From: a virus
Lineage: Duplodnaviria > Heunggongvirae > Uroviricota > Caudoviricetes
Strand: one strand, 5' to 3'
Length of the DNA: 40,859 nucleotides
Virus record (IMG/VR): IMGVR_UViG_2597489870_000008
Each line of letters opens with the position of its first letter. Position 1 is the stretch's first letter. The notes below the pieces were generated by a model. The model did no database searches. It was not told where the DNA came from and saw only the letters and a list, made by a program, of their open reading frames with translations. The translations under genes were made by a program, and so were the position numbers. Of the stretch, positions 542 to 40,859 are shown piece after piece.

Positions 542-1579
542 TTAACGCTTATCCGCCACCAGTTTGAGCGCGTGTTCCAGCACGTTAATGTCAGCACCCG
601 CTTTATGGGCATTTTCACTTAAATAACGCCGCCACTGCCGCGCGCCAGGAATACCCTGGAACAAGCCCAGCATATGCCGGGTAATATGGCCGAGATACGT
701 CCCCTGGCTGAGTTCACGCTCAATGTACGGATACATGGCGCGCACTACCGCCACCGGATCGGCATCGGTATCCGAGGAACCAAAGATCTCCCGGTCTACC
801 GCCGCCAGAATACCCGGATTCTGATACGCCTCGCGCCCGACCATCACGCCATCCATATGTTGCAAATGCGCTTTAGCTTCTTCCAGCGACTTGATGCCAC
901 CGTTAATCGACATCGTCAGATGCGGAAAGTCACGCTTCAGTTGATACACACGCGGATAATCGAGCGGCGGGATTTCACGGTTTTCTTTCGGGCTTAACCC
1001 CGAAAGCCAGGCTTTACGTGCGTGGATGATGAACATCTCACACTCGCCTTTGCCGGAAACGGTGTTGATGAAATTGCAGAGAAATTCATAGCTGTCCTGG
1101 TCATCGATGCCAATACGCGTTTTCACCGTCACCGGAATCGACACCACATCGCGCATCGCTTTCACGCAGTCGGCAACCAGCTGCGCATTACCCATCAGAC
1201 ACGCACCAAACATGCCGTTCTGCACCCGGTCAGACGGGCAGCCGACATTCAGGTTGATCTCATCATATCCGCGCGCTTCTGCCAGCTTCGCACACTGCGC
1301 CAGCGCCGCCGGATCGCTACCGCCGAGTTGCAACGCTACCGGATGTTCTTCTTCACTGTACGCCAGGTAATCACCTTTACCGTGAATAATCGCCCCTGTG
1401 GTCACCATTTCGGTATACAGCAGCGTATTGCGGGAAAGCAGACGCAAGAAATAGCGGCAATGTCTGTCCGTCCAGTCGAGCATAGGAGCAATGCTAAACC
1501 GAGAATTCCAGTAAACACCAGTTTTTTCAGGCATCACGCTGGTTTGATTAATTTTTTGTGTTTCATGATTATCGTGCAT
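542..1579 (-). CDS. dusA: tRNA-dihydrouridine synthase A
   Basis: 345-aa ORF with a full-length Dus/TIM-barrel flavoprotein sequence (…[21 protein letters not shown]…VKTRIGID…) matching E. coli DusA; lies next to pspG as in E. coli. Confidence 0.9.
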
Positions 1580-1611
1580 TTTTGAACATTTCAGGCTATT
1601 TTTCTCGCGTT

Positions 1612-1647
1612 AGGTTCCCGCACAGGTTCCCACGTTTTATGGGAACC
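1612..1647. promoter_or_regulatory. Cluster of AGGTTCCC motifs (two direct, one inverted) in the dusA-int intergenic region; candidate integrase or regulatory binding sites
   Basis: AGGTTCCC at 1612-1619 and 1624-1631, and inverted GGGAACC at 1641-1647 (7-bp stem with a 9-nt spacer), just upstream of the int start. Confidence 0.35.
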
Positions 1648-1667
1648 CGAAATAACGAGGTCGTGTA

Positions 1668-2765
1668 ATGGCGTACTATAACATAGAGAAACGACTAAAA
1701 TCCGATGGCACACCACGCTATCGCTGTAATGTGATTATCAAAGAAAAAGGTGTTATCACTTACAGGGAAAGCAAAACATTCCCTAAACATGCTCATGCCA
1801 AAACATGGGGCACACAGAAAGTGATGGAATTAGATCTATATGGCATTCCATCATCAAATGCAGTTGACGGACTTACAGTCCGTGACTTACTACACAAATA
1901 TTTAAATGACCCAAATGCCGGAGGTAAAGCAGGCCGTACTAAAAGATATGTGCTGGAACTGCTTATGGATAGTGACATCTCCGCGATCAAACTATCTGAA
2001 CTGACAGAAAATGACGTAATTGAACATTGCAGGCTAAGAAACAACGCTGGTGCAGGTCCAGCTACAGTTAGCCACGATGTTAGTTATCTTGGCAGTGTTC
2101 TGGATGCTGCCAAACCTGTATATGGAATTAATTACACATCAAACCCAGCAAAAGCCGCTCGTCCATATCTACTTAAACTTGGTTTAATTGGTAAATCAAA
2201 TCGTCGTAATCGTAGACCGGCATCTGATGAACTGGACATGCTCATTGAAGGTCTTCAACAACGATCTACACATAAATGCTCAAAAATTCCGTTCGTTGAT
2301 ATCCTCAAATTTTCTGTGTGGTCATGTATGCGAATCGGTGAAGTATGCCGATTACGATGGGAGGATCTCGATCAGGAACAAAAATCCATACTCGTAAGAG
2401 ACAGGAAAGATCCACGTAAAAAGGAAGGCAACCATATGAAAGTAGCCTTGCTTGGGGAAGCCTGGGATATCGTCCAACGACAACCCAAAAAATCAGAATT
2501 CATTTTTCCATATAACAGCACTTCTGTTACTGCGGGATTCCAGAGGGTAAGAAGCAAATTAGGTATTAAAGATCTGCGATACCATGATTTGCGTAGAGAA
2601 GGGGCAAGTCGCTTATTTGAGGCTGGTTTTAGTATTGAGGAAGTCGCCCAGGTTACAGGGCATCGTTCATTAAACGTGCTATGGCAGGTATATACCGAAC
2701 TGTATCCGAAATCTTTACATAATCGTTTTGAAGAGCTCCAAAGGAGCAGAAATAAGACCTCTTGA
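1668..2765 (+). CDS. int: Tyrosine-type phage integrase (dusA-associated integrase class)
   Basis: 365-aa ORF with GAGG 7 nt upstream of the ATG; C-terminal HDLRREGASRL…GHRS…YTELY region typical of tyrosine recombinases; sits immediately next to the 5' end of dusA. Confidence 0.85.
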   Translation: MAYYNIEKRLKSDGTPRYRCNVIIKEKGVITYRESKTFPKHAHAKTWGTQKVMELDLYGIPSSNAVDGLTVRDLLHKYLNDPNAGGKAGRTKRYVLELLMDSDISAIKLSELTENDVIEHCRLRNNAGAGPATVSHDVSYLGSVLDAAKPVYGINYTSNPAKAARPYLLKLGLIGKSNRRNRRPASDELDMLIEGLQQRSTHKCSKIPFVDILKFSVWSCMRIGEVCRLRWEDLDQEQKSILVRDRKDPRKKEGNHMKVALLGEAWDIVQRQPKKSEFIFPYNSTSVTAGFQRVRSKLGIKDLRYHDLRREGASRLFEAGFSIEEVAQVTGHRSLNVLWQVYTELYPKSLHNRFEELQRSRNKTS

Positions 2766-3075: not shown

Positions 3076-3218
3076 TTAACACGTAAAATCGGTAACGGCT
3101 GGAAATCATTCAATACTCGCACTATCGAAAGTTCGCCAGCCAGCCGCAGCACGTTCTTGCATACGACGTGGCTGCGGCTTCCAACATTAGACAAATAACT
3201 CTTTAAATTGCTTTTAAA

Positions 3219-3782
3219 TTATTTCGTTTGAATGCCAGTAACAGGAAATCGTTTATATAGGGTTGATAGCCCAACGTTATAGATACGTGCAACATAACGC
3301 CGTGATTTCCCTGCCGCTATGAGCGCTCCCATCTGTTGCCACTGCTCGTCGCTAAACTTCGGTCTACGCCCACCAATCCGGCCTTTGGATCTGGCAATAG
3401 CCAAACCAGCTAAAGTTCGCTCGCTATTCAAATCAGATTCATACTGCGCAGCAGAAAGAATATTACGGAAATTATAGCGACCACTTGCTGTTTTCAGGTC
3501 TACGCCATCTGTAATACTCCGAAAATTAACACCTTTTTCGTGCAGATTTTGAAACATCAATAGCGCATGCAGCACATTTCTCCCTATCCGATCTAACTTC
3601 CAGACAATCAACTCATCTCCACTTTTCATCACCGTAATTAATTCCTTTAACACAGGGCGATTAGCTGTTCTGCCACTGGCATATTCTTCATAAATTCGCT
3701 CACAGCCAGCTGACTCAAGTGCAAGACGTTGCAACTCTGTATCCTGATGATTTGTTGATACACGAACATACCCGTAAATCAT
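3219..3782 (-). CDS. Serine recombinase, DNA invertase of the Gin/Pin/Cin/Hin family
   Basis: 187-aa ORF beginning MIYGYVRVSTNHQDTELQ with GRTANRPVL, resolvase/invertase catalytic domain plus C-terminal HTH; sits next to an invertible tail-fibre segment. Confidence 0.85.
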   Translation of the reverse strand: MIYGYVRVSTNHQDTELQRLALESAGCERIYEEYASGRTANRPVLKELITVMKSGDELIVWKLDRIGRNVLHALLMFQNLHEKGVNFRSITDGVDLKTASGRYNFRNILSAAQYESDLNSERTLAGLAIARSKGRIGGRRPKFSDEQWQQMGALIAAGKSRRYVARIYNVGLSTLYKRFPVTGIQTK

Positions 3783-3787
3783 GAGTG

Positions 3788-3814
3788 CTTCTCCTGTTGT
3801 AAAAACAGGAGAAG
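3788..3814 (-). promoter_or_regulatory. 27-bp perfect palindrome (CTTCTCCTGTT-gtaaa-AACAGGAGAAG) that contains the invertase Shine-Dalgarno sequence
   Basis: 11-bp perfect inverted repeat with a 5-nt spacer directly upstream of the invertase ATG; the AGGAG lies in one arm, so a hairpin would sequester the RBS. Confidence 0.4.
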
Positions 3815-3841
3815 AGGCGAAATATCACCTGATTCAGAAAA

Positions 3842-3867
3842 ATATTTGAAAGGTTGGTTTGGGAGAA
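3842..3867. promoter_or_regulatory. gix/hix-like invertase crossover site (invertase-proximal)
   Basis: Reverse complement reads TTCTCCCAAACC-AA-CCTTTCAAATAT; it shares its first 15 bp with the site at 5722-5747 and resembles Mu gix (TTCCTGTAAACC-GA-GGTTTTGGATAA). Confidence 0.6.
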
Positions 3868-4215
3868 GCGGCGAAAAGGGATGTGGGTACAGGAGAAAAT
3901 CAGATACCGGATATGTCAGCCTGGAAAAGAAATCCGAGTTCTAATCGCTGGAGAAAATTGCCTGATGGAACCATCATTCAAATGGGAATATCAGCATCAG
4001 GGCCATTAGGCTCACCTGTAAATATCACCCTGCCGATATCTTTCAGCAATACCAATTATTGTGTTGTTGCATCGTACGATAATGCACGGTCAGGTGTGTC
4101 AACAATGGTTAGTTTTGCAGCGTTACCTGTTTCACCATCGCAATTTTCCCTGATGTCATCAGTGACTGAGCAAGGAATAAATCCTTTTGCTTACTGGATT
4201 GCTTTTGGAGATTAA
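3859..4215 (+). CDS. Alternative tail-fibre C-terminal variable segment (no start of its own; becomes fused to the constant N-terminus after inversion)
   Basis: Open frame begins exactly at the crossover site on a TTG codon (GLGE junction shared with the fibre gene); an inversion would join it in frame to the constant part at 6024..5735. Confidence 0.65.
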   Translation: MGEAAKRDVGTGENQIPDMSAWKRNPSSNRWRKLPDGTIIQMGISASGPLGSPVNITLPISFSNTNYCVVASYDNARSGVSTMVSFAALPVSPSQFSLMSSVTEQGINPFAYWIAFGD

Positions 4216-4218
4216 TAA

Positions 4219-4638
4219 ATGGACAGATACTTCTATTCACAAAAAGAAAATGGTTTTTTTACCGATTTAAATAAAGCACCTTCAGATGCTGTTGAGATAA
4301 CCACGGATGAATGGCTGTCACTACTGGATGGTCAGGATAATGGCATGAAAATAGTCAGCAATCAGGAGGGATATCCGGTTTTGACAGAGCAACCACCTTT
4401 ATCAAAAGAAAACCTTATTGCATTGGCAGAGTTGAAAAAAGGAAAACTTATTAATGAAGCCAACGAGCACATGAACAACAGGCAATGGCCTGGTAAAGCG
4501 GCGATTGGTCGCCTGAAAGGTGAGGAACTGGTGCAATATAATTTGTGGCTGGATTATCTGGACGCACTGGAACTGGTCGATACTTCCGGTGCGCCAGATA
4601 TTGAATGGCCTACGCCTCCGGCAGTTCAGGCCAGATGA
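4219..4638 (+). CDS. Tail-fibre assembly protein (alternative orientation)
   Basis: 139-aa ORF; the C-terminal DTSGAPDIEWPTPP motif is typical of Tfa proteins; directly downstream of the alternative fibre segment. Confidence 0.75.
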   Translation: MDRYFYSQKENGFFTDLNKAPSDAVEITTDEWLSLLDGQDNGMKIVSNQEGYPVLTEQPPLSKENLIALAELKKGKLINEANEHMNNRQWPGKAAIGRLKGEELVQYNLWLDYLDALELVDTSGAPDIEWPTPPAVQAR

Positions 4639-5203
4639 CGTCCGGCGCTGTGCTGGTATCTGTTGCCGTCACCGCGTCAATATAATCCAGCACAGCGTTA
4701 AGTCGGGTGTTTTCTGGCTGCGTCAGCTTCCGCCCGGCCTGTAATTTCAGTTGAATCAGACTGATGGAAGCCATTGCAGCATCAATCAGCGACTGGCGCT
4801 GTGCTTCTGCCGCTTCTACTGCGGCACCGTGTTGTGCCTCAGTATCTGTCACCCATTTCTCACCATCCCATTTATCATATGGCGTTAACGGTGAAAGCGT
4901 GACATAACCGTTTTTGATGGCACCGATATAATCCACTGTAACAGCTGCGCCATTTTCTGTTGAGTAAACAGTCTCATTGCGATGGTCTTCTTCATGGCTC
5001 CATCCCTTACCCGTAAATATTGCCACTCTTCCCGGAATGTATTCGCCCGGGTCAATACCAGTGGAACAGGCGGGCATACTTACGCCAGTATTAATATATT
5101 CATCAGACCAGCCCGTATATTCAGACGTTACTGCATCATAATAATAACAACGCATATCACCCGGTACTGTAGCCAGCCCATTTTCATCAAAAACAGGTTT
5201 CAT
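4610..5203 (-). CDS. Tail-fibre assembly protein (currently expressed orientation)
   Basis: 197-aa ORF starting [10 protein letters not shown] with C-terminal DTSTAPDVIWPELP; follows the tail-fibre gene and converges on the other tfa. Confidence 0.8.
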   Translation of the reverse strand: MKPVFDENGLATVPGDMRCYYYDAVTSEYTGWSDEYINTGVSMPACSTGIDPGEYIPGRVAIFTGKGWSHEEDHRNETVYSTENGAAVTVDYIGAIKNGYVTLSPLTPYDKWDGEKWVTDTEAQHGAAVEAAEAQRQSLIDAAMASISLIQLKLQAGRKLTQPENTRLNAVLDYIDAVTATDTSTAPDVIWPELPEA

Positions 5204-6024
5204 TATTTAGCCCTCACCAGAAAGTTAAATGCAATATTTCGTGGACGGGTTTCTGTACCTACATTTCCACTAATTTCACCATAACGTTTAACACTACGAG
5301 AGCTAAGAGCTCGTAGTGAGGAAGGCACCTTAAGACCGGGTTCGTCCGTTTTAACTATTCCCCCGTCACCATATGTAGCCAGTATTCCTGGGTTTACTCC
5401 TTCCCGTGCACTTCCTGCGGCAAGCCCGTCCCCCGTCCACAATTCCATATTGTGTGCATGATCCATAATTGTGTGTGATTGCCCTGAAAGTAGGGTACGT
5501 CCGACATCAATCCCGCGCCCGTCATCCCAGATACGAATGAAATCACCGCGTGCGTCAGGTAATGCCAGCGCCGGAAACACTTTCGCCAGCACAGGGTAAT
5601 CAGTGGCAGAGAATTTCGCGCCGTTGAACTTCAAAAACACCATACTGGACCAGCTATCGATTACGGTATCTGGCATTGCTGCGGACGGCCAGAAGAACGG
5701 AACGCCAATAGCTGGAGCTCCTTCTCCCAAACCAAGGTTTTCGAGAGCCGTTTTCACCGTGCCATCCGATTTGATATCGCCAAACGGATTCTTGCGGCTT
5801 AACAGCAGCGCACGAAGCGCAGTAAGCAGCTGGTCATGCCGCCCCTTCTCCAGGCTGGCACCGGATGCCTCCACCACGCTGCAGAGTTCTTCCTGCAACA
5901 TGTCAAAGTAGTCATCATCCAGATCGGTGGCAGGTGTGCCGGTCTGGGGGTTACCACGGGTAAAACCGTTCTTACCCGCGCCGAACTTATCCTTCTGCGC
6001 GGTTTTCGTGTCTATACGATGCAT
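5203..6024 (-). CDS. Tail-fibre protein (constant N-terminus about 6024..5735 plus current variable C-terminus)
   Basis: 273-aa ORF beginning [21 protein letters not shown], a conserved prophage fibre N-terminus; a crossover site lies within the coding region. Confidence 0.8.
5722..5747. promoter_or_regulatory. gix/hix-like invertase crossover site inside the tail-fibre gene
   Basis: TTCTCCCAAACC-AA-GGTTTTCGAGAG, an imperfect palindrome with AAACC half-site ends; encodes the ALENLGLGE junction. Confidence 0.6.
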
Positions 6025-6027
6025 GGA

Positions 6028-6612
6028 TTACTCCGGATATTTAAAAATTACGTAGGTATGCGACGGGCAGAGTTTGTTAAGCACGCACTCGACAACGGTG
6101 TCGCCCCAGATACGCAGTGCGGAATCACAGGGATCGCCACATGTCATCCAGGTGGTGTTGGTAGCGGCTGGCATGTTGACCTGCCAGTAATACCGCCATT
6201 CCGGCGCATTCACCGCGTCAGTACAGGCCGATGAGCAGGTGAACGTGCTTTTATCGTATCGCGTGATGGTGGCGTCTGGTCTGCCCAGGGCAGCAAGCTG
6301 TGCAAGGTAAAAATCCTCATTGATGCCGCCCGCCAGATTAACCTTCGCATCCAGCCGTTGCTGACGCTGGCGAAGGGTCTGTGTCCCTGCGGGAATACAT
6401 TCATCCGGCAGACCGCACAGACGCTCCCAGCGGTTTATCAGTTCAGTGGTGGTGCGCGGATCCAGCTCCCGCATCAGGGCATCCGCACGCTGATGAACAC
6501 GGGTTAATGACGGTGCCGCACCTGCAATCGCCGGATCGCTGGCTGACCACGCCGGACCGGGCGGCAGCAGTGCCGACAACAGACGGATGTAATCATCGTT
6601 TGTCACGTCCAT
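6028..6612 (-). CDS. Mu gp48-like tail/baseplate protein
   Basis: 194-aa ORF in the position of Mu gp48 between the baseplate J-like gene and the tail fibre; coupled to its neighbours. Confidence 0.65.
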
Positions 6613-38484: not shown

Positions 38485-39519
38485 TCAGAAAAATATTTCA
38501 GCTTTTTTACCATCAAATACCCACTCGCTGGATAAGATTTTCATATTGCTAGCATAATTAAAAGTAAATTCTATCATTATCTTTTGTTTATCATTCGGAT
38601 AGTCGAAAACCTCTAATAAAAAGAAATCTCCTATAATCGAATAACAATGTATGCAACAGTTAGATAAATAACAATCACTGTCTCTGTCCTTAACAGTACC
38701 AATTCCAGCCGCCCAGAGTTTTTTGTTATCCACGTGAGTGGCTATTAGTTCTTTGACATCAGAATCACGAAAAGATAAAAACTTGACGAATACGGACTTA
38801 CTGTAAACAGAAATACCTCTGATAATTCCAGTTCGTTTCTTACATCTCCAGCATTTTGTAACTCGCGATTCTATTTTTGCAGTCAGCACATCCCCAACCT
38901 TTGGGAACCATAATAGCTTTCTGGCAAAAACACCCGCGATAAACTCCCTGACACTAATCCCAAACTGTGGTAGATACAAGTCCCCATTTTCATTCTGACG
39001 CACACCAAAAACAGGTAAATCGTAGCTATGGTATATATTCCCACCATGCTCTTTACTTCCTTTACGTAACTTTCGCAACCACAGTGCACGGACTCCTGAT
39101 GCGATATATCGTTTTTGACGTTCTTTAAATTCATCGTCTTTTTGCGGTGATAACTGTACTTCGAAAACCAGTTTCGCGTTATTTCTGGTACAAAACACAT
39201 CGGCAATCCATTGTTCTCCTGCTGGGGTCGCCCCTTGTTTTTCGGTAGTAACTGACCAGCCAGCATCACTGGCTAATTTTGCGATTAAGAATTTGAGATA
39301 TAAATGTTCTGCGCTTTCTTTCGCATACAGGCAATCGCTTTTGGATTTATGTGCAAAGTAATAGTTATTAAGTTTGCTTGTTTTAGGTATACCAGGCTGA
39401 CCACAGCACGACATAAACAAAGACTGGCTTTTATATGTCTGTTTAAGATATTCCCATTCCTGAGAGTTAAATTCAAAAGAATGAATTTCTTTTCCGTTAA
39501 GTGACGCTTTTAGTGGCAT
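38485..39519 (-). CDS. CoiA-like (competence protein CoiA family) putative nuclease
   Basis: 344-aa AT-rich ORF; N-terminal CCGQPGI…NYYFAHKSKSDCLYAKESAEHLYLKF fits the CoiA signature (Cys pair, FAH, ESxEH) as I recall it. Confidence 0.55.
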   Translation of the reverse strand: MPLKASLNGKEIHSFEFNSQEWEYLKQTYKSQSLFMSCCGQPGIPKTSKLNNYYFAHKSKSDCLYAKESAEHLYLKFLIAKLASDAGWSVTTEKQGATPAGEQWIADVFCTRNNAKLVFEVQLSPQKDDEFKERQKRYIASGVRALWLRKLRKGSKEHGGNIYHSYDLPVFGVRQNENGDLYLPQFGISVREFIAGVFARKLLWFPKVGDVLTAKIESRVTKCWRCKKRTGIIRGISVYSKSVFVKFLSFRDSDVKELIATHVDNKKLWAAGIGTVKDRDSDCYLSNCCIHCYSIIGDFFLLEVFDYPNDKQKIMIEFTFNYASNMKILSSEWVFDGKKAEIFF

Positions 39520-39546
39520 TCATGCTACCTGTATTTACCCTCCCAG

Positions 39547-39587
39547 CGAGGGAAATTAAGATATCAAAAAACCATTATCTGGTGAAA
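39547..39587. repeat. Right 41-bp terminal inverted repeat flanking the CoiA-like gene
   Basis: Reverse complement TTTCACCAGATAATGGTTTTTTGATATCTTAATTTCCCTCG; lies 28 nt upstream of the CoiA-like start codon. Confidence 0.6.
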
Positions 39588-39657
39588 CGCAGTACCATCA
39601 CACTTAAGTGAACGACATTATGTCTAAAGACATTTTAAAAAAATCACCACCTATGAA

Positions 39658-39831
39658 TCATACTGCTTTGCGACGACGAAGCTTACCCTGCTGCTCTTTA
39701 CCAGAGACAGTAACGTGAGTGAACGCATTAGGAGCAGCCTTCATCAGAACTTCAACAGCAGCACCCATACCTGCGAATGCTTTCATTGTGTCGAACTTAA
39801 GCTGTGGCTTGGTTGCTTTTTGATCTTCCAT
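39658..39831 (-). CDS. Small hypothetical protein (57 aa) downstream of the candidate toxin gene
   Basis: Hand-found ORF below the track cutoff: MEDQKATKPQLKFDTMKAFAGMGAAVEVLMKAAPNAFTHVTVSGKEQQGKLRRRKAV, with GGAG 8 nt upstream. Confidence 0.4.
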   Translation of the reverse strand: MEDQKATKPQLKFDTMKAFAGMGAAVEVLMKAAPNAFTHVTVSGKEQQGKLRRRKAV

Positions 39832-39870
39832 AGAAAACTCCAGAAGCTATACCGAAACAATTCCTGTTGT

Positions 39871-40290
39871 TTACTCATCATCAATAGATGATACGCAATA
39901 TTTATTTTTAAATTTAAGGTTCTTTGGCGTAACTTCATCAGATATATCAAAACCGTCCAGAATTCTATTGAATGTAGCTTCTGGCATATCATCATGAACA
40001 GAAATCTCACCCGATCGCTGCTTTCTAACCATGTTATCCACTCGCCAAATTATAGCTTCAGCGTAAACAACATAACTTGGATGCTTGATAAAGCGATGAT
40101 CACCGGAATTCAAAACGCAAGACGGATCGTGGGGGACACCATCCTTGATACTAGAAATATTAACAACTAAAACACAATAACAATCGTTAACGGGGTAATA
40201 AACAGGATCATTACAAATCACATGAAGATGATTGCATGGTCCAGTTGGGGCAAGCACAGTTCCTTTCCTGTATGGCTGATAATCCGTCAT
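39871..40290 (-). CDS. Uncharacterised 139-aa protein translationally coupled to a Panacea-domain gene; candidate PanT-type toxin or defence effector
   Basis: ATG overlaps the stop of the upstream DUF4065 gene (ATGA); AT-rich; Cys/His-rich (…GPCNHLHVICNDP…DPSCVLNSGDHRFIKHPSYV…); no known family recognised. Confidence 0.55.
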   Translation of the reverse strand: MTDYQPYRKGTVLAPTGPCNHLHVICNDPVYYPVNDCYCVLVVNISSIKDGVPHDPSCVLNSGDHRFIKHPSYVVYAEAIIWRVDNMVRKQRSGEISVHDDMPEATFNRILDGFDISDEVTPKNLKFKNKYCVSSIDDE

Positions 40291-40859
40291 GATAATTGCA
40301 AAGAAAATTCCTTAAGTTTCTGAGATTCTTCCATTTTGCCAATTATACGATTAGCCTCATCCTCGCTTTTACCCTCACTGATCAACATTTCTTTCAGGTC
40401 TATAGGCTTACGAGAATTGCCAGGATCGTGCCACTCTGGACAAACGCTTTCTAAATGCGTCATATTTGCGAGATCAAATCGGTTCATATGCCCATACCGA
40501 GAATAGATTTCATCTAAAATCCGGATATCTGCACGACTCAATTCATCAAAGACCTCGTCTGCATCCATTTCCCTCGGATCTGAACGCAACGATACATTAT
40601 GCCCGTTCGTCTCTATCAAGTTGTACCAGTAGTCACCAATGCCTTCAGCCTTACCGCGAATCAAGTTCAGCGTATTCGACATGACTGGTCCAAATTTCAT
40701 AGAGTAAAGGCTATCTTCGCCGATCATCCTGCCATGCTTCAAAATCGACTGGCGGTTAGACAGATAGAGCAGCTTCATCAATTTCAGATATGCCATGCGC
40801 CCACCTCTCTTAAGAAGTAGGTATGCAGCCATTTGAGCTACTTTTTCTTCGCAAAACAT
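40287..40859 (-). CDS. Panacea-domain (DUF4065, SocA/GepA-like) protein; candidate antitoxin (the N-terminus may lie at or beyond the window edge)
   Basis: …MAAYLLLKRGGRMAYLKLMKLLYLSNRQSILKHGRMIGEDSLYSMKFGPVMSNTLNLI… matches the DUF4065 pattern as I recall it; the ORF reaches the last base of the window. Confidence 0.6.
   Translation of the reverse strand: MFCEEKVAQMAAYLLLKRGGRMAYLKLMKLLYLSNRQSILKHGRMIGEDSLYSMKFGPVMSNTLNLIRGKAEGIGDYWYNLIETNGHNVSLRSDPREMDADEVFDELSRADIRILDEIYSRYGHMNRFDLANMTHLESVCPEWHDPGNSRKPIDLKEMLISEGKSEDEANRIIGKMEESQKLKEFSLQLS

Follow-up and report, generated by a model that had tools for sequence, protein, structure and literature searches.

What does a tail-fibre gene do with a second, silent C-terminus lying on the opposite strand between two inverted repeats, next to a gene for a DNA invertase? 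This arrangement is found in a 40,859-nt stretch of caudoviral DNA (IMG/VR record IMGVR_UViG_2597489870_000008; the whole stretch is hereafter called the window), for which an initial annotation, made from the letters and their open reading frames, had proposed an invertible host-range switch at 3842-5747. The window is 100% identical to enterotoxigenic Escherichia coli (ETEC) H10407 (NC_017633.1), in which its positions 3100-6100 correspond to 4,719,290-4,722,290 on the complementary strand. We conclude with high confidence that the tail-fibre gene of a prophage holds here a site-specific inversion switch of the Din family (Gin/Cin/Pin/Hin type), an interpretation supported by the finding that all of its structural predictions hold. 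How inversion is controlled is less certain, as the determinants of Fis/enhancer control are only partly present and a hairpin covers the ribosome-binding site (RBS) of the invertase gene.

Two inverted 26-bp crossover sites bound the segment

A repeat search returned, as its top inverted-repeat pair, two arms at 3849-3868 and 5721-5740 that are complementary at 18/20 positions and that contain an exact shared arm of 15 bp (TTGGTTTGGGAGAAG at 3854-3868 and CTTCTCCCAAACCAA at 5721-5735). The arms lie in two 26-bp sites, each composed of two 12-bp half-sites around a 2-bp core as in Din-type recombination sites (Table 1). The sites are in inverted orientation and have identical cores that appear as complementary TT and AA dinucleotides, as inverted sites require; their inner half-sites are identical, that of the invertase-proximal site being the consensus. 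In most of 80 viral loci of the clade to which the window invertase belongs, an invertase-proximal site with an outer half of the form CCTTT... is found at a fixed distance of 73 ± 1 bp from the invertase ATG.

The limits given in the initial annotation are exactly the ends of the two 26-bp sites, and the inverted 15-bp arm that it described is exact. It had likened the sites to Mu gix and suggested aligning them to known sites; the comparison was run for Mu gix and e14 pix, with the Mu and K-12 e14 sites extracted with the same pattern as the window sites. The 26-bp Din-type format was borne out, whereas the closest match proved to be e14 pix and not gix: the in-gene site is, base for base (26/26), the reverse complement of its e14 counterpart and shares the AA/TT core. 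Since this match is complete, and since the Mu cores and outer positions differ, 'pix-like' is the precise label rather than 'gix-like'. Furthermore, the 15-bp arm is the inverted repeat given for the experimentally inverted P segment of e14 (PMC12529663).

Such a repeat could in principle have arisen by chance between unrelated genes and have no recombination function. By its length alone the 15-bp repeat is only moderately unlikely, because 3/300 dinucleotide shuffles of 3100-6200 contained an exact inverted repeat of at least 15 bp (counting repeats with arms at least 100 bp apart). Likewise, the search for the arm with up to two mismatches is a weak chance test, at least two matches being reached in 7/100 shuffles. 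However, the sites lie exactly at the boundary between the constant and variable parts of the fibre gene and beside the invertase gene, the alternative tip is in frame, and the breakpoints of a natural inversion (isolates CX07 and CX15, see below) fall within these very sites. The decisive points for the sites are the 26/26 identity to the proven e14 in-gene site and the identity of the arm to the proven e14 repeat. We rejected a chance repeat on site identity, placement, reading frame and natural breakpoints, and regard it as vanishingly improbable.

A shufflon, with more than two sites as in Min of p15B or the P2-like locus of enteropathogenic E. coli (EPEC), was ruled out by the presence of just two site-arm matches. 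In the whole window no crossover site beyond the two was found by the arm search allowing up to two mismatches, and the 14-mer TTCTCCCAAACCAA occurs twice in the 40.9 kb, both times at the crossover sites.

The segment carries two fibre tips of different families, each with its own chaperone

The in-gene site divides the fibre open reading frame (ORF; 5203-6024, minus strand, 273 aa) into a constant N-terminal part, Sc, which is the last gene of a Mu-like baseplate operon, and a variable C-terminal part, Sv. PHROG tail-fibre families differ between the N-terminal 100 residues and the C-terminal collar-type part. An alternative C-terminus, Sv', lies in frame on the opposite strand, and each tip is accompanied by one gene for a Tfa chaperone; the two tfa genes are convergent and overlap by 29 bp at their 3' ends. 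The tips belong to different domain families, collar and gp53-like_C.

When 3855-5734 was inverted in silico, the ...ENLGLGE of the constant part ran into AAKRDVGTGENQIP..., giving a 216-aa fibre followed by the 139-aa chaperone, and both sites were retained. These results uphold the initial annotation, which had placed one site inside the fibre gene and the other next to the invertase gene (it lies 73 bp from the ATG), had the alternative C-terminus in frame across a shared GLGE junction and gave each orientation its own chaperone (two Caudo_TAP genes, at 4610-5203 on the minus and 4219-4638 on the plus strand). It also had the variable part at 5203..5734 as the one currently expressed, which agrees with the fusion of Sc to 5203-5733 in the ORF on the minus strand.

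At the protein level, the collar-type tip shares 42% identity with the C-terminal part of e14 StfE; between the gp53-type tip and that of e14 StfP the figure is about 30%. DNA identity to e14 is 96% from the baseplate J gene (jayE) through ymfQ and the fibre N-terminus (stfP) and ends at the site. The cassettes are mosaic.

Table 1. Features of the fibre-inversion locus (window coordinates).
Feature	Position	Strand	Details
Enhancer-equivalent region	3698..3760	-	proximal 15-mer 3746-3760, distal 15-mer 3698-3712
Serine DNA invertase, 187 aa, WP_000639149.1, phi80 PinL-like clade	3219..3782	-	Resolvase + HTH_7
Hairpin over invertase RBS	3788..3814	-	perfect 11-bp stem, 5-nt loop, contains AGGAG
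Invertase-proximal 26-bp crossover site	3842..3867		core TT 3854-3855; ATATTTGAAAGG TT GGTTTGGGAGAA
Invertible segment	3855..5734		1,880 bp between the two core dinucleotides; in-silico inversion
Silent fibre C-terminus Sv' (gp53-like C-terminal domain)	3856..4215	+	Pfam Gp53-like_C E=1e-13; in frame from GLGE
Chaperone Tfa', 139 aa, partner of Sv'	4219..4638	+	Pfam Caudo_TAP E=9e-25; PHROG 188 E=1e-51
Chaperone Tfa, 197 aa, partner of expressed Sv	4610..5203	-	Pfam Caudo_TAP E=5e-27; PHROG 105 E=2e-83
Expressed fibre C-terminus Sv (tail-collar type)	5203..5733	-	PHROG 523 'tail collar fiber' E=3e-50
In-gene 26-bp crossover site	5722..5747		core AA 5734-5735; TTCTCCCAAACC AA GGTTTTCGAGAG; whole site TTCTCCCAAACCAAGGTTTTCGAGAG
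Constant fibre N-terminus Sc, about 97 aa	5734..6024	-	PHROG 1858/1396 tail fibre N-terminus

The segment also contains internal inverted repeats (4548-4565 with 4674-4691, and 4646-4668 with 4675-4697; 78-89% complementary), which trace to the conserved C-termini (LDYLDAL / LDYIDAV) that the two convergent tfa genes encode.

Both orientations occur among relatives

Natural relatives of the locus were found in both arrangements. In three prophages at dusA (loci L003, L004 and L010) the gp53-type cassette is fused to Sc and a collar-type cassette lies beside the invertase gene, i.e. the segment is flipped compared to the window, whose own arrangement is also present in loci L007, L008 and L009. 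Flipped and unflipped dusA prophages have the same flanks (DinI, YmfQ) and the same or nearly the same invertase (WP_000639149.1). Moreover, pairwise blastn between the inter-site segments of the two orientation groups gave long minus-strand matches at 93-97% identity.

A megablast search with the whole in-silico flipped 3-kb locus returned no record with at least 80% coverage. Because the cassettes are mosaic between strains, we used junction queries of 590-600 bp in place of the full locus and counted, among 5,426 complete E. coli genomes, the records that covered at least 80% of a query. On the fibre side, the Sc+Sv junction was present in 72 records versus 16 for Sc+Sv'; on the invertase side, the invertase gene lay beside Sv' in 3 records versus beside Sv in 7. 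Both states were also seen among the IMG/VR contigs of the clade in which both sites were found (n=52), with the collar-type tip expressed and the gp53-type tip silent in 25 and the reverse in 10. Furthermore, the exact 216-aa protein predicted for the flipped fibre is present in a public protein collection, on at least 1000 contigs.

An inversion between these sites is captured in the clonal isolates CX07 and CX15. Their chromosomes are of equal length and the 5-kb and 3-kb flanks of the locus are 100% identical; they differ solely in a 1,885-bp stretch whose inversion runs precisely from one site to the other, and the in-gene site is the same as that of the window. From this natural variation an active switch appears to be by far the best reading of the locus, and we infer that it is active in H10407 itself.

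The invertase has the family's catalytic residues and may be controlled differently

The protein encoded just outside the segment, with its ATG at 3782 and 73 bp from the core at 3854-3855, is built as a Din-type enzyme, i.e. a serine recombinase of ~190 aa with a catalytic N-terminus and a C-terminal helix-turn-helix. It matched Pfam Resolvase (E=3e-36) and HTH_7 as well as PHROG 125 'DNA invertase' (E=1e-72), and its best solved structure was Gin (3uj3, E=1e-56; residues 1-181 aligned). Its identity is 55% with PinE and 50% with Gin, and residues R7, S9, R42, D64, R65, R68, E121 and R122 are invariant among the three. The predicted chemistry of the window invertase is that of the family. A database search found relatives at 77-99% identity in Escherichia, Salmonella, Citrobacter, Klebsiella, Enterobacter, Serratia and others, and PinL of phi80 falls in the same clade.

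Several of the residues that govern activation in Hin differ in this clade. In Hin, the dimer is held in check by a helix-E switch of F105, F106 and M109 and released by the action of Fis; F105 and M109 fix the inactive form, and F106 is essential (PMC4513852). Hin with the substitution F105N inverts faster, no longer depends on Fis for inversion in vivo and strongly induces SOS (PMC4513852). With window numbering equal to Hin numbering minus 1, Hin F105 corresponds to N104, F106 to F105, H107 to R106 and M109 to I108, so that the stretch reads Y103-N104-F105-R106-N107-I108 in the window invertase and in all 24 clade members examined; of the phenylalanine switch, the equivalent of the essential Hin F106 alone is kept. 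The clade's helix E is near-invariant and unusual (YNFRNI...AQYESDLNSERT): it reads GRYNFRNILSAAQYESDLNSERT in the window and 24 homologues (with V for A112 in one and A for T123 in one), compared to GRFFFHVMGALAEMERELIVERT in Gin and Pin. Changes also affect the pocket for F105, where the window has M76 and F77 and Gin has L76 and V77. Among the residues that contact Fis or the enhancer, Hin R/K48 is replaced by E47 (R in most clade members), R/K51 by T50 (never basic across the clade) and R154 by A153 (variable across the clade).

The enhancer-equivalent region may differ too. Fis sites follow the consensus GNNYRNNWNNYRNNC, and the two Fis sites of an enhancer are spaced 48 bp apart. In gin and pinE, consensus-like 15-mers (6/7 and 7/7) are located at gene positions +30 and +78, which gives this spacing of 48 bp. 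The proximal 15-mer of the window (TATCAACAAATCATC) scores 5/7 on this crude 7-position consensus, Fis sites being degenerate. At the distal position, the G at -7 is absent from all 80 viral clade loci and the C at +7 is also absent from most.

Between site and gene, the window carries a hairpin with a predicted RNA folding energy of -23.5 kcal/mol (z=-4.8), which was equalled in stability by 0/200 shuffles; the same repeat is annotated as 'IR3' beside pinL in phi80. The spacer from core to ATG is 73 bp in the clade versus 68 bp in Mu and e14, and the 5 extra bp are accounted for by the 11-bp stem. The hairpin is likely to be a translational restraint on the invertase. A role as terminator was ruled out, as a T-run is absent downstream on either strand.

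Thus, the window invertase differs in two sets of residues that define the Fis/enhancer-dependent subclass, and we hypothesize that its regulation differs accordingly from that of Gin and Hin. It is possible, and we put it forward tentatively, that the PinL-like clade, which is widespread in enterobacteria and little studied, has lost or rewired the Fis/enhancer control module. This suggestion follows from the N at the Hin F105 position, from the loss of helix-B basic residues and of R154, from the lack of a consensus distal Fis site and from a spacer that exceeds that of gin and pinE by 5 bp; the 11-bp hairpin that buries the RBS may have taken over control. A literature search on pinL and phi80 gave nothing on function, and one for naturally Fis-independent fibre invertases returned papers on Hin mutants only.

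Is the switch still in use in H10407?

Several observations weigh against a working switch driven by this enzyme. First, the outer half of the invertase-proximal site (ATATTTGAAAGG) is weak and matches the inner half at only 5/12 positions. Second, both deposited H10407 records (NC_017633.1 and CP007594.1, of the same sequence) are in one orientation. Third, the distal Fis 15-mer (CAGCTGGCTGTGAGC) scores 4/7 on the crude consensus for these degenerate sites and is without the G at -7. The contact residues Hin K47, R/K48, R/K51, Q151, R154 and L155 are said to be conserved in 15 invertases (PMC3798978), and the window enzyme keeps three of the six (K46, Q150 and L154, for Hin K47, Q151 and L155); because the other contact residues are lost and the distal 15-mer is poor, canonical Fis/enhancer activation may not apply. 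Furthermore, the flip between CX07 and CX15 proves the sites and not the window enzyme, since the invertase present there is of the PinE type, and other Pin-type invertases acting in trans could in principle be the cause of the orientation differences among relatives. That the two fibres would differ in host range is drawn from analogy with Mu and P1.

Taken to their limit, the single orientation and the weak outer half-site would fit a locus inherited from an invertible ancestor that no longer flips at a meaningful rate, as would the stable hairpin over the Shine-Dalgarno sequence, the degraded distal Fis 15-mer and the replacement of enhancer/Fis-contact residues by E47, T50 and A153. However, the same invertase protein, site and hairpin occur with both cassette orientations in many genomes, the catalytic residues of the invertase are intact, and the conservation of the gene at 77-99% across Enterobacteriaceae points to selection on invertase function. 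A poor half-site may be no bar either, as Salmonella hixR likewise has one. We therefore consider a frozen locus quite improbable and retain an active inversion switch as the preferred reading.

An identical cassette is present in a second prophage of H10407

The flipped query also matched H10407 at 2,954,453-2,956,339 (NC_017633.1). This second locus (NC_017633.1 2950453-2960339, reverse complement) is the fibre end of a different prophage, of the DUF2612/baseplate J type and adjoining yfhH-tadA; this prophage carries an Sc of its own, and its invertase is annotated as frameshifted. Global alignment of its segment (about 3989-5895 of the locus) with window 3853-5753 gave zero differences over 1,901 bp. 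At the left boundary the last difference is at 3852, two bases from the core, and identity is about 70% just left of 3853; at the right boundary the first differences are at 5754 and 5758, i.e. identity ends 6 bp past the end of the 26-bp site and 19 bp past the core, and similarity is gone after 5798. Both copies are oriented to express the collar-type tip, and the window's is the only intact invertase of the pair.

The limits of the identical block at the crossover sites suggest that site-specific exchange may have carried the cassette from one prophage to the other, and since there is essentially no homology left of the core, site exchange is a more economical account of the left boundary than gene conversion. 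These data suggest a recent transfer of the cassette between two H10407 prophages, possibly at the crossover sites; collapse of a repeat during assembly may be another account of the two identical copies. The window invertase may also serve the second cassette in trans.

The switch forms the fibre end of an apparently complete prophage

By the RefSeq annotation of the whole window, the host element is an apparently complete temperate myovirus prophage of ~38 kb, integrated at dusA and with zero pseudogenes. The annotated genes comprise a CI/Cro module, replication and lysis genes; terminase, portal, HK97-type protease and capsid; and sheath, tube, tape measure and a Mu-like baseplate (gp45, gp46, gp47 and gp48/YmfQ homologues). 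The invertible locus provides the last structural genes, and at the end of the element the tail fibre is accompanied by the invertase gene, a DinI-like gene and a tyrosine integrase gene that abuts dusA.

The completeness of the prophage bears on whom the switch serves. Inversion might mainly benefit the bacterium, for instance through a truncated or chimeric tip protein, made from the invertase-proximal cassette, that blocks the adsorption of other phages. Inversion of the homologous e14 P segment has been reported to block T2 adsorption, the product being StfE2 (PMC12529663), and in the window the invertase-proximal cassette has an annotated 100-aa gp53-like ORF of its own (WP_071594060.1) and a weak plus-strand promoter-like site at 3755-3782 directed into the segment. 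However, promoter-like matches are within chance (3 found, 5.2 expected), and because this prophage looks complete from repressor to tail, unlike the defective e14, its fibre is taken to be part of a virion. A host role and a role in phage host range are, moreover, mutually compatible. A switch that mainly serves the host is, in our judgement, improbable, and we return to inversion as a means of changing the fibre of the phage.

RefSeq names the Sc+Sv fibre (window 5203-6024) 'hypothetical protein' in H10407 and 'integrase' in strains E423 and CM2010-0578/1 (L007 4582-5328 and L008 4638-5384), lists the silent cassette as a separate 100-aa 'gp53-like domain-containing protein' (WP_071594060.1) and calls the invertase 'recombinase family protein'. 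No NCBIfam equivalog was found for the invertase or the fibre parts.

Some observations concern the ends of the prophage. The tyrosine integrase gene (window 1579-2765) is divergent from dusA, with 89 bp between its start and the 5' end of that gene, which is the layout of the dusA-specific integrase family; the junction recurs in L004, L007, L008 and L010. At the end opposite dusA (window 38485-40859, minus strand), genes annotated as a Panacea domain protein and a CoiA-like competence protein may be prophage cargo or genes of a flanking island. L003 (NZ_CP126947.1, 189090-197078) lies on a 204-kb record labelled plasmid and carries an identical invertase, DinI and YmfQ and a 120-bp dusA fragment; its prophage end adjoins a truncated ParB gene, reflecting plasmid integration or an assembly issue.

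Proposed mechanism and significance

The steps proposed here follow the established mechanism of serine invertases and are transferred by analogy. Invertase dimers would bind the two 26-bp sites and then synapse, each strand would be cut at the central AA/TT dinucleotide through Ser9, and rotation of one subunit pair by 180 degrees followed by religation would leave 3855-5734 inverted. In the present state, Sc is joined to the collar-type tip in a 273-aa fibre, followed by chaperone Tfa; in the flipped state, Sc would be joined to the gp53-like tip in a 216-aa fibre, followed by Tfa'. Since the cassette on the invertase side is without Sc or an evident promoter, a single lysogen population would release virions of two receptor specificities, which would amount to bet-hedging on host range. 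The two tip families with dedicated chaperones, in a complete myovirus prophage, likewise suggest that receptor specificity alternates as it does between Mu G(+) and G(-).

As a tail-fibre inversion switch, the locus is nothing conceptually new. Mu G, P1 C and e14 P have had the status of textbook examples since the 1980s. Genome-wide screens have catalogued such invertible loci (PMC4272514, PMC9881135). The practical value is one of annotation, given the names that fibre and invertase carry in RefSeq. Two aspects hold modest promise: how the PinL-like clade is regulated, and the duplicate cassette bounded by the crossover sites. Should the clade work without Fis and the enhancer, nature would offer a parallel to the engineered hyperactive mutants of Hin and Gin, and the case would show how the regulation of a DNA-breaking enzyme can pass from topology sensing to expression control. 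The identical, site-bounded cassette in two prophages of one genome is a concrete case in which to ask whether invertases carry fibre cassettes from phage to phage.

Comparison with known inversion systems

Salmonella Hin is likewise a small serine invertase, and the enhancer-equivalent position of the window, ~100 bp from the site and within the 5' end of the gene, resembles its arrangement. The hix core dinucleotide is AA, and one half-site of one hix site is poor. However, what Hin flips is a promoter and not a fibre tip. Moreover, Hin F105, H107 and M109 are N, R and I in the window enzyme, R/K48 and K51 are E and T, and R154 is A; in Hin, Fis dependence is governed by these positions (PMC3798978, PMC4513852).

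The Mu G segment offers the same overall architecture: baseplate genes (gp45-48 homologues) are followed by a fibre gene S split into Sc and Sv, the Sv'/U' cassettes lie on the opposite strand, the invertase gene is located just outside the segment, and the sites are of 26 bp. The AAACC-NN-GGTTT core architecture of gix is common to the window sites, whereas the gix cores are TC/GA instead of AA/TT and several half-site and outer positions differ. Furthermore, the G segment is larger (about 3 kb) and the fibres are longer, Gin is only half identical to the window invertase (50%), and gin carries consensus Fis 15-mers at +30 and +78.

In phi80, pinL encodes a clade mate of the window invertase that has its helix E sequence; a DinI gene is nearby, and the region upstream is identical to that of the window, including the site TTCTCCCAAACCAACCTTTCAAATAT and the 11-bp hairpin 'IR3'. 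However, one site and a pseudogene fragment of a collar domain remain in phi80, hence there is no invertible segment, and pinL is C-terminally truncated (172 aa).

The P segment of e14 in E. coli K-12 (ymfQ-stfP-tfaP-tfaE-stfE-pinE) has a gene order identical to that of the window. The in-gene site (26/26), the 15-bp inverted repeat and the AA/TT core are all the same, and there too one collar-type and one gp53-type tip are each accompanied by a Tfa, with a convergent tfa overlap of 29 bp. Inversion of the 1,797-bp e14 P segment by PinE and PinQ has been measured by quantitative PCR and sequencing (PMC12529663), and e14 P inversion was detected as reproducible phase variation by Goldberg et al. 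(PMC4272514); between them, the two studies document it by PCR, qPCR and sequencing. In contrast, PinE (55% identical) belongs to another clade with a distinct helix E, and the window invertase did not qualify as its orthologue; the invertase-proximal outer half is CCTTTCAAATAT in the window and CGTTTATGAAAA in e14, the distance from core to ATG is 73 bp versus 68 bp, the cassette proteins are only 30-42% identical, and e14 is a defective remnant at icd whereas the window holds a complete prophage at dusA. Altogether, these comparisons place the switch, as judged by its sequence, closest to e14 P/Pin in its sites and fibre and closest to phi80 PinL in its enzyme.

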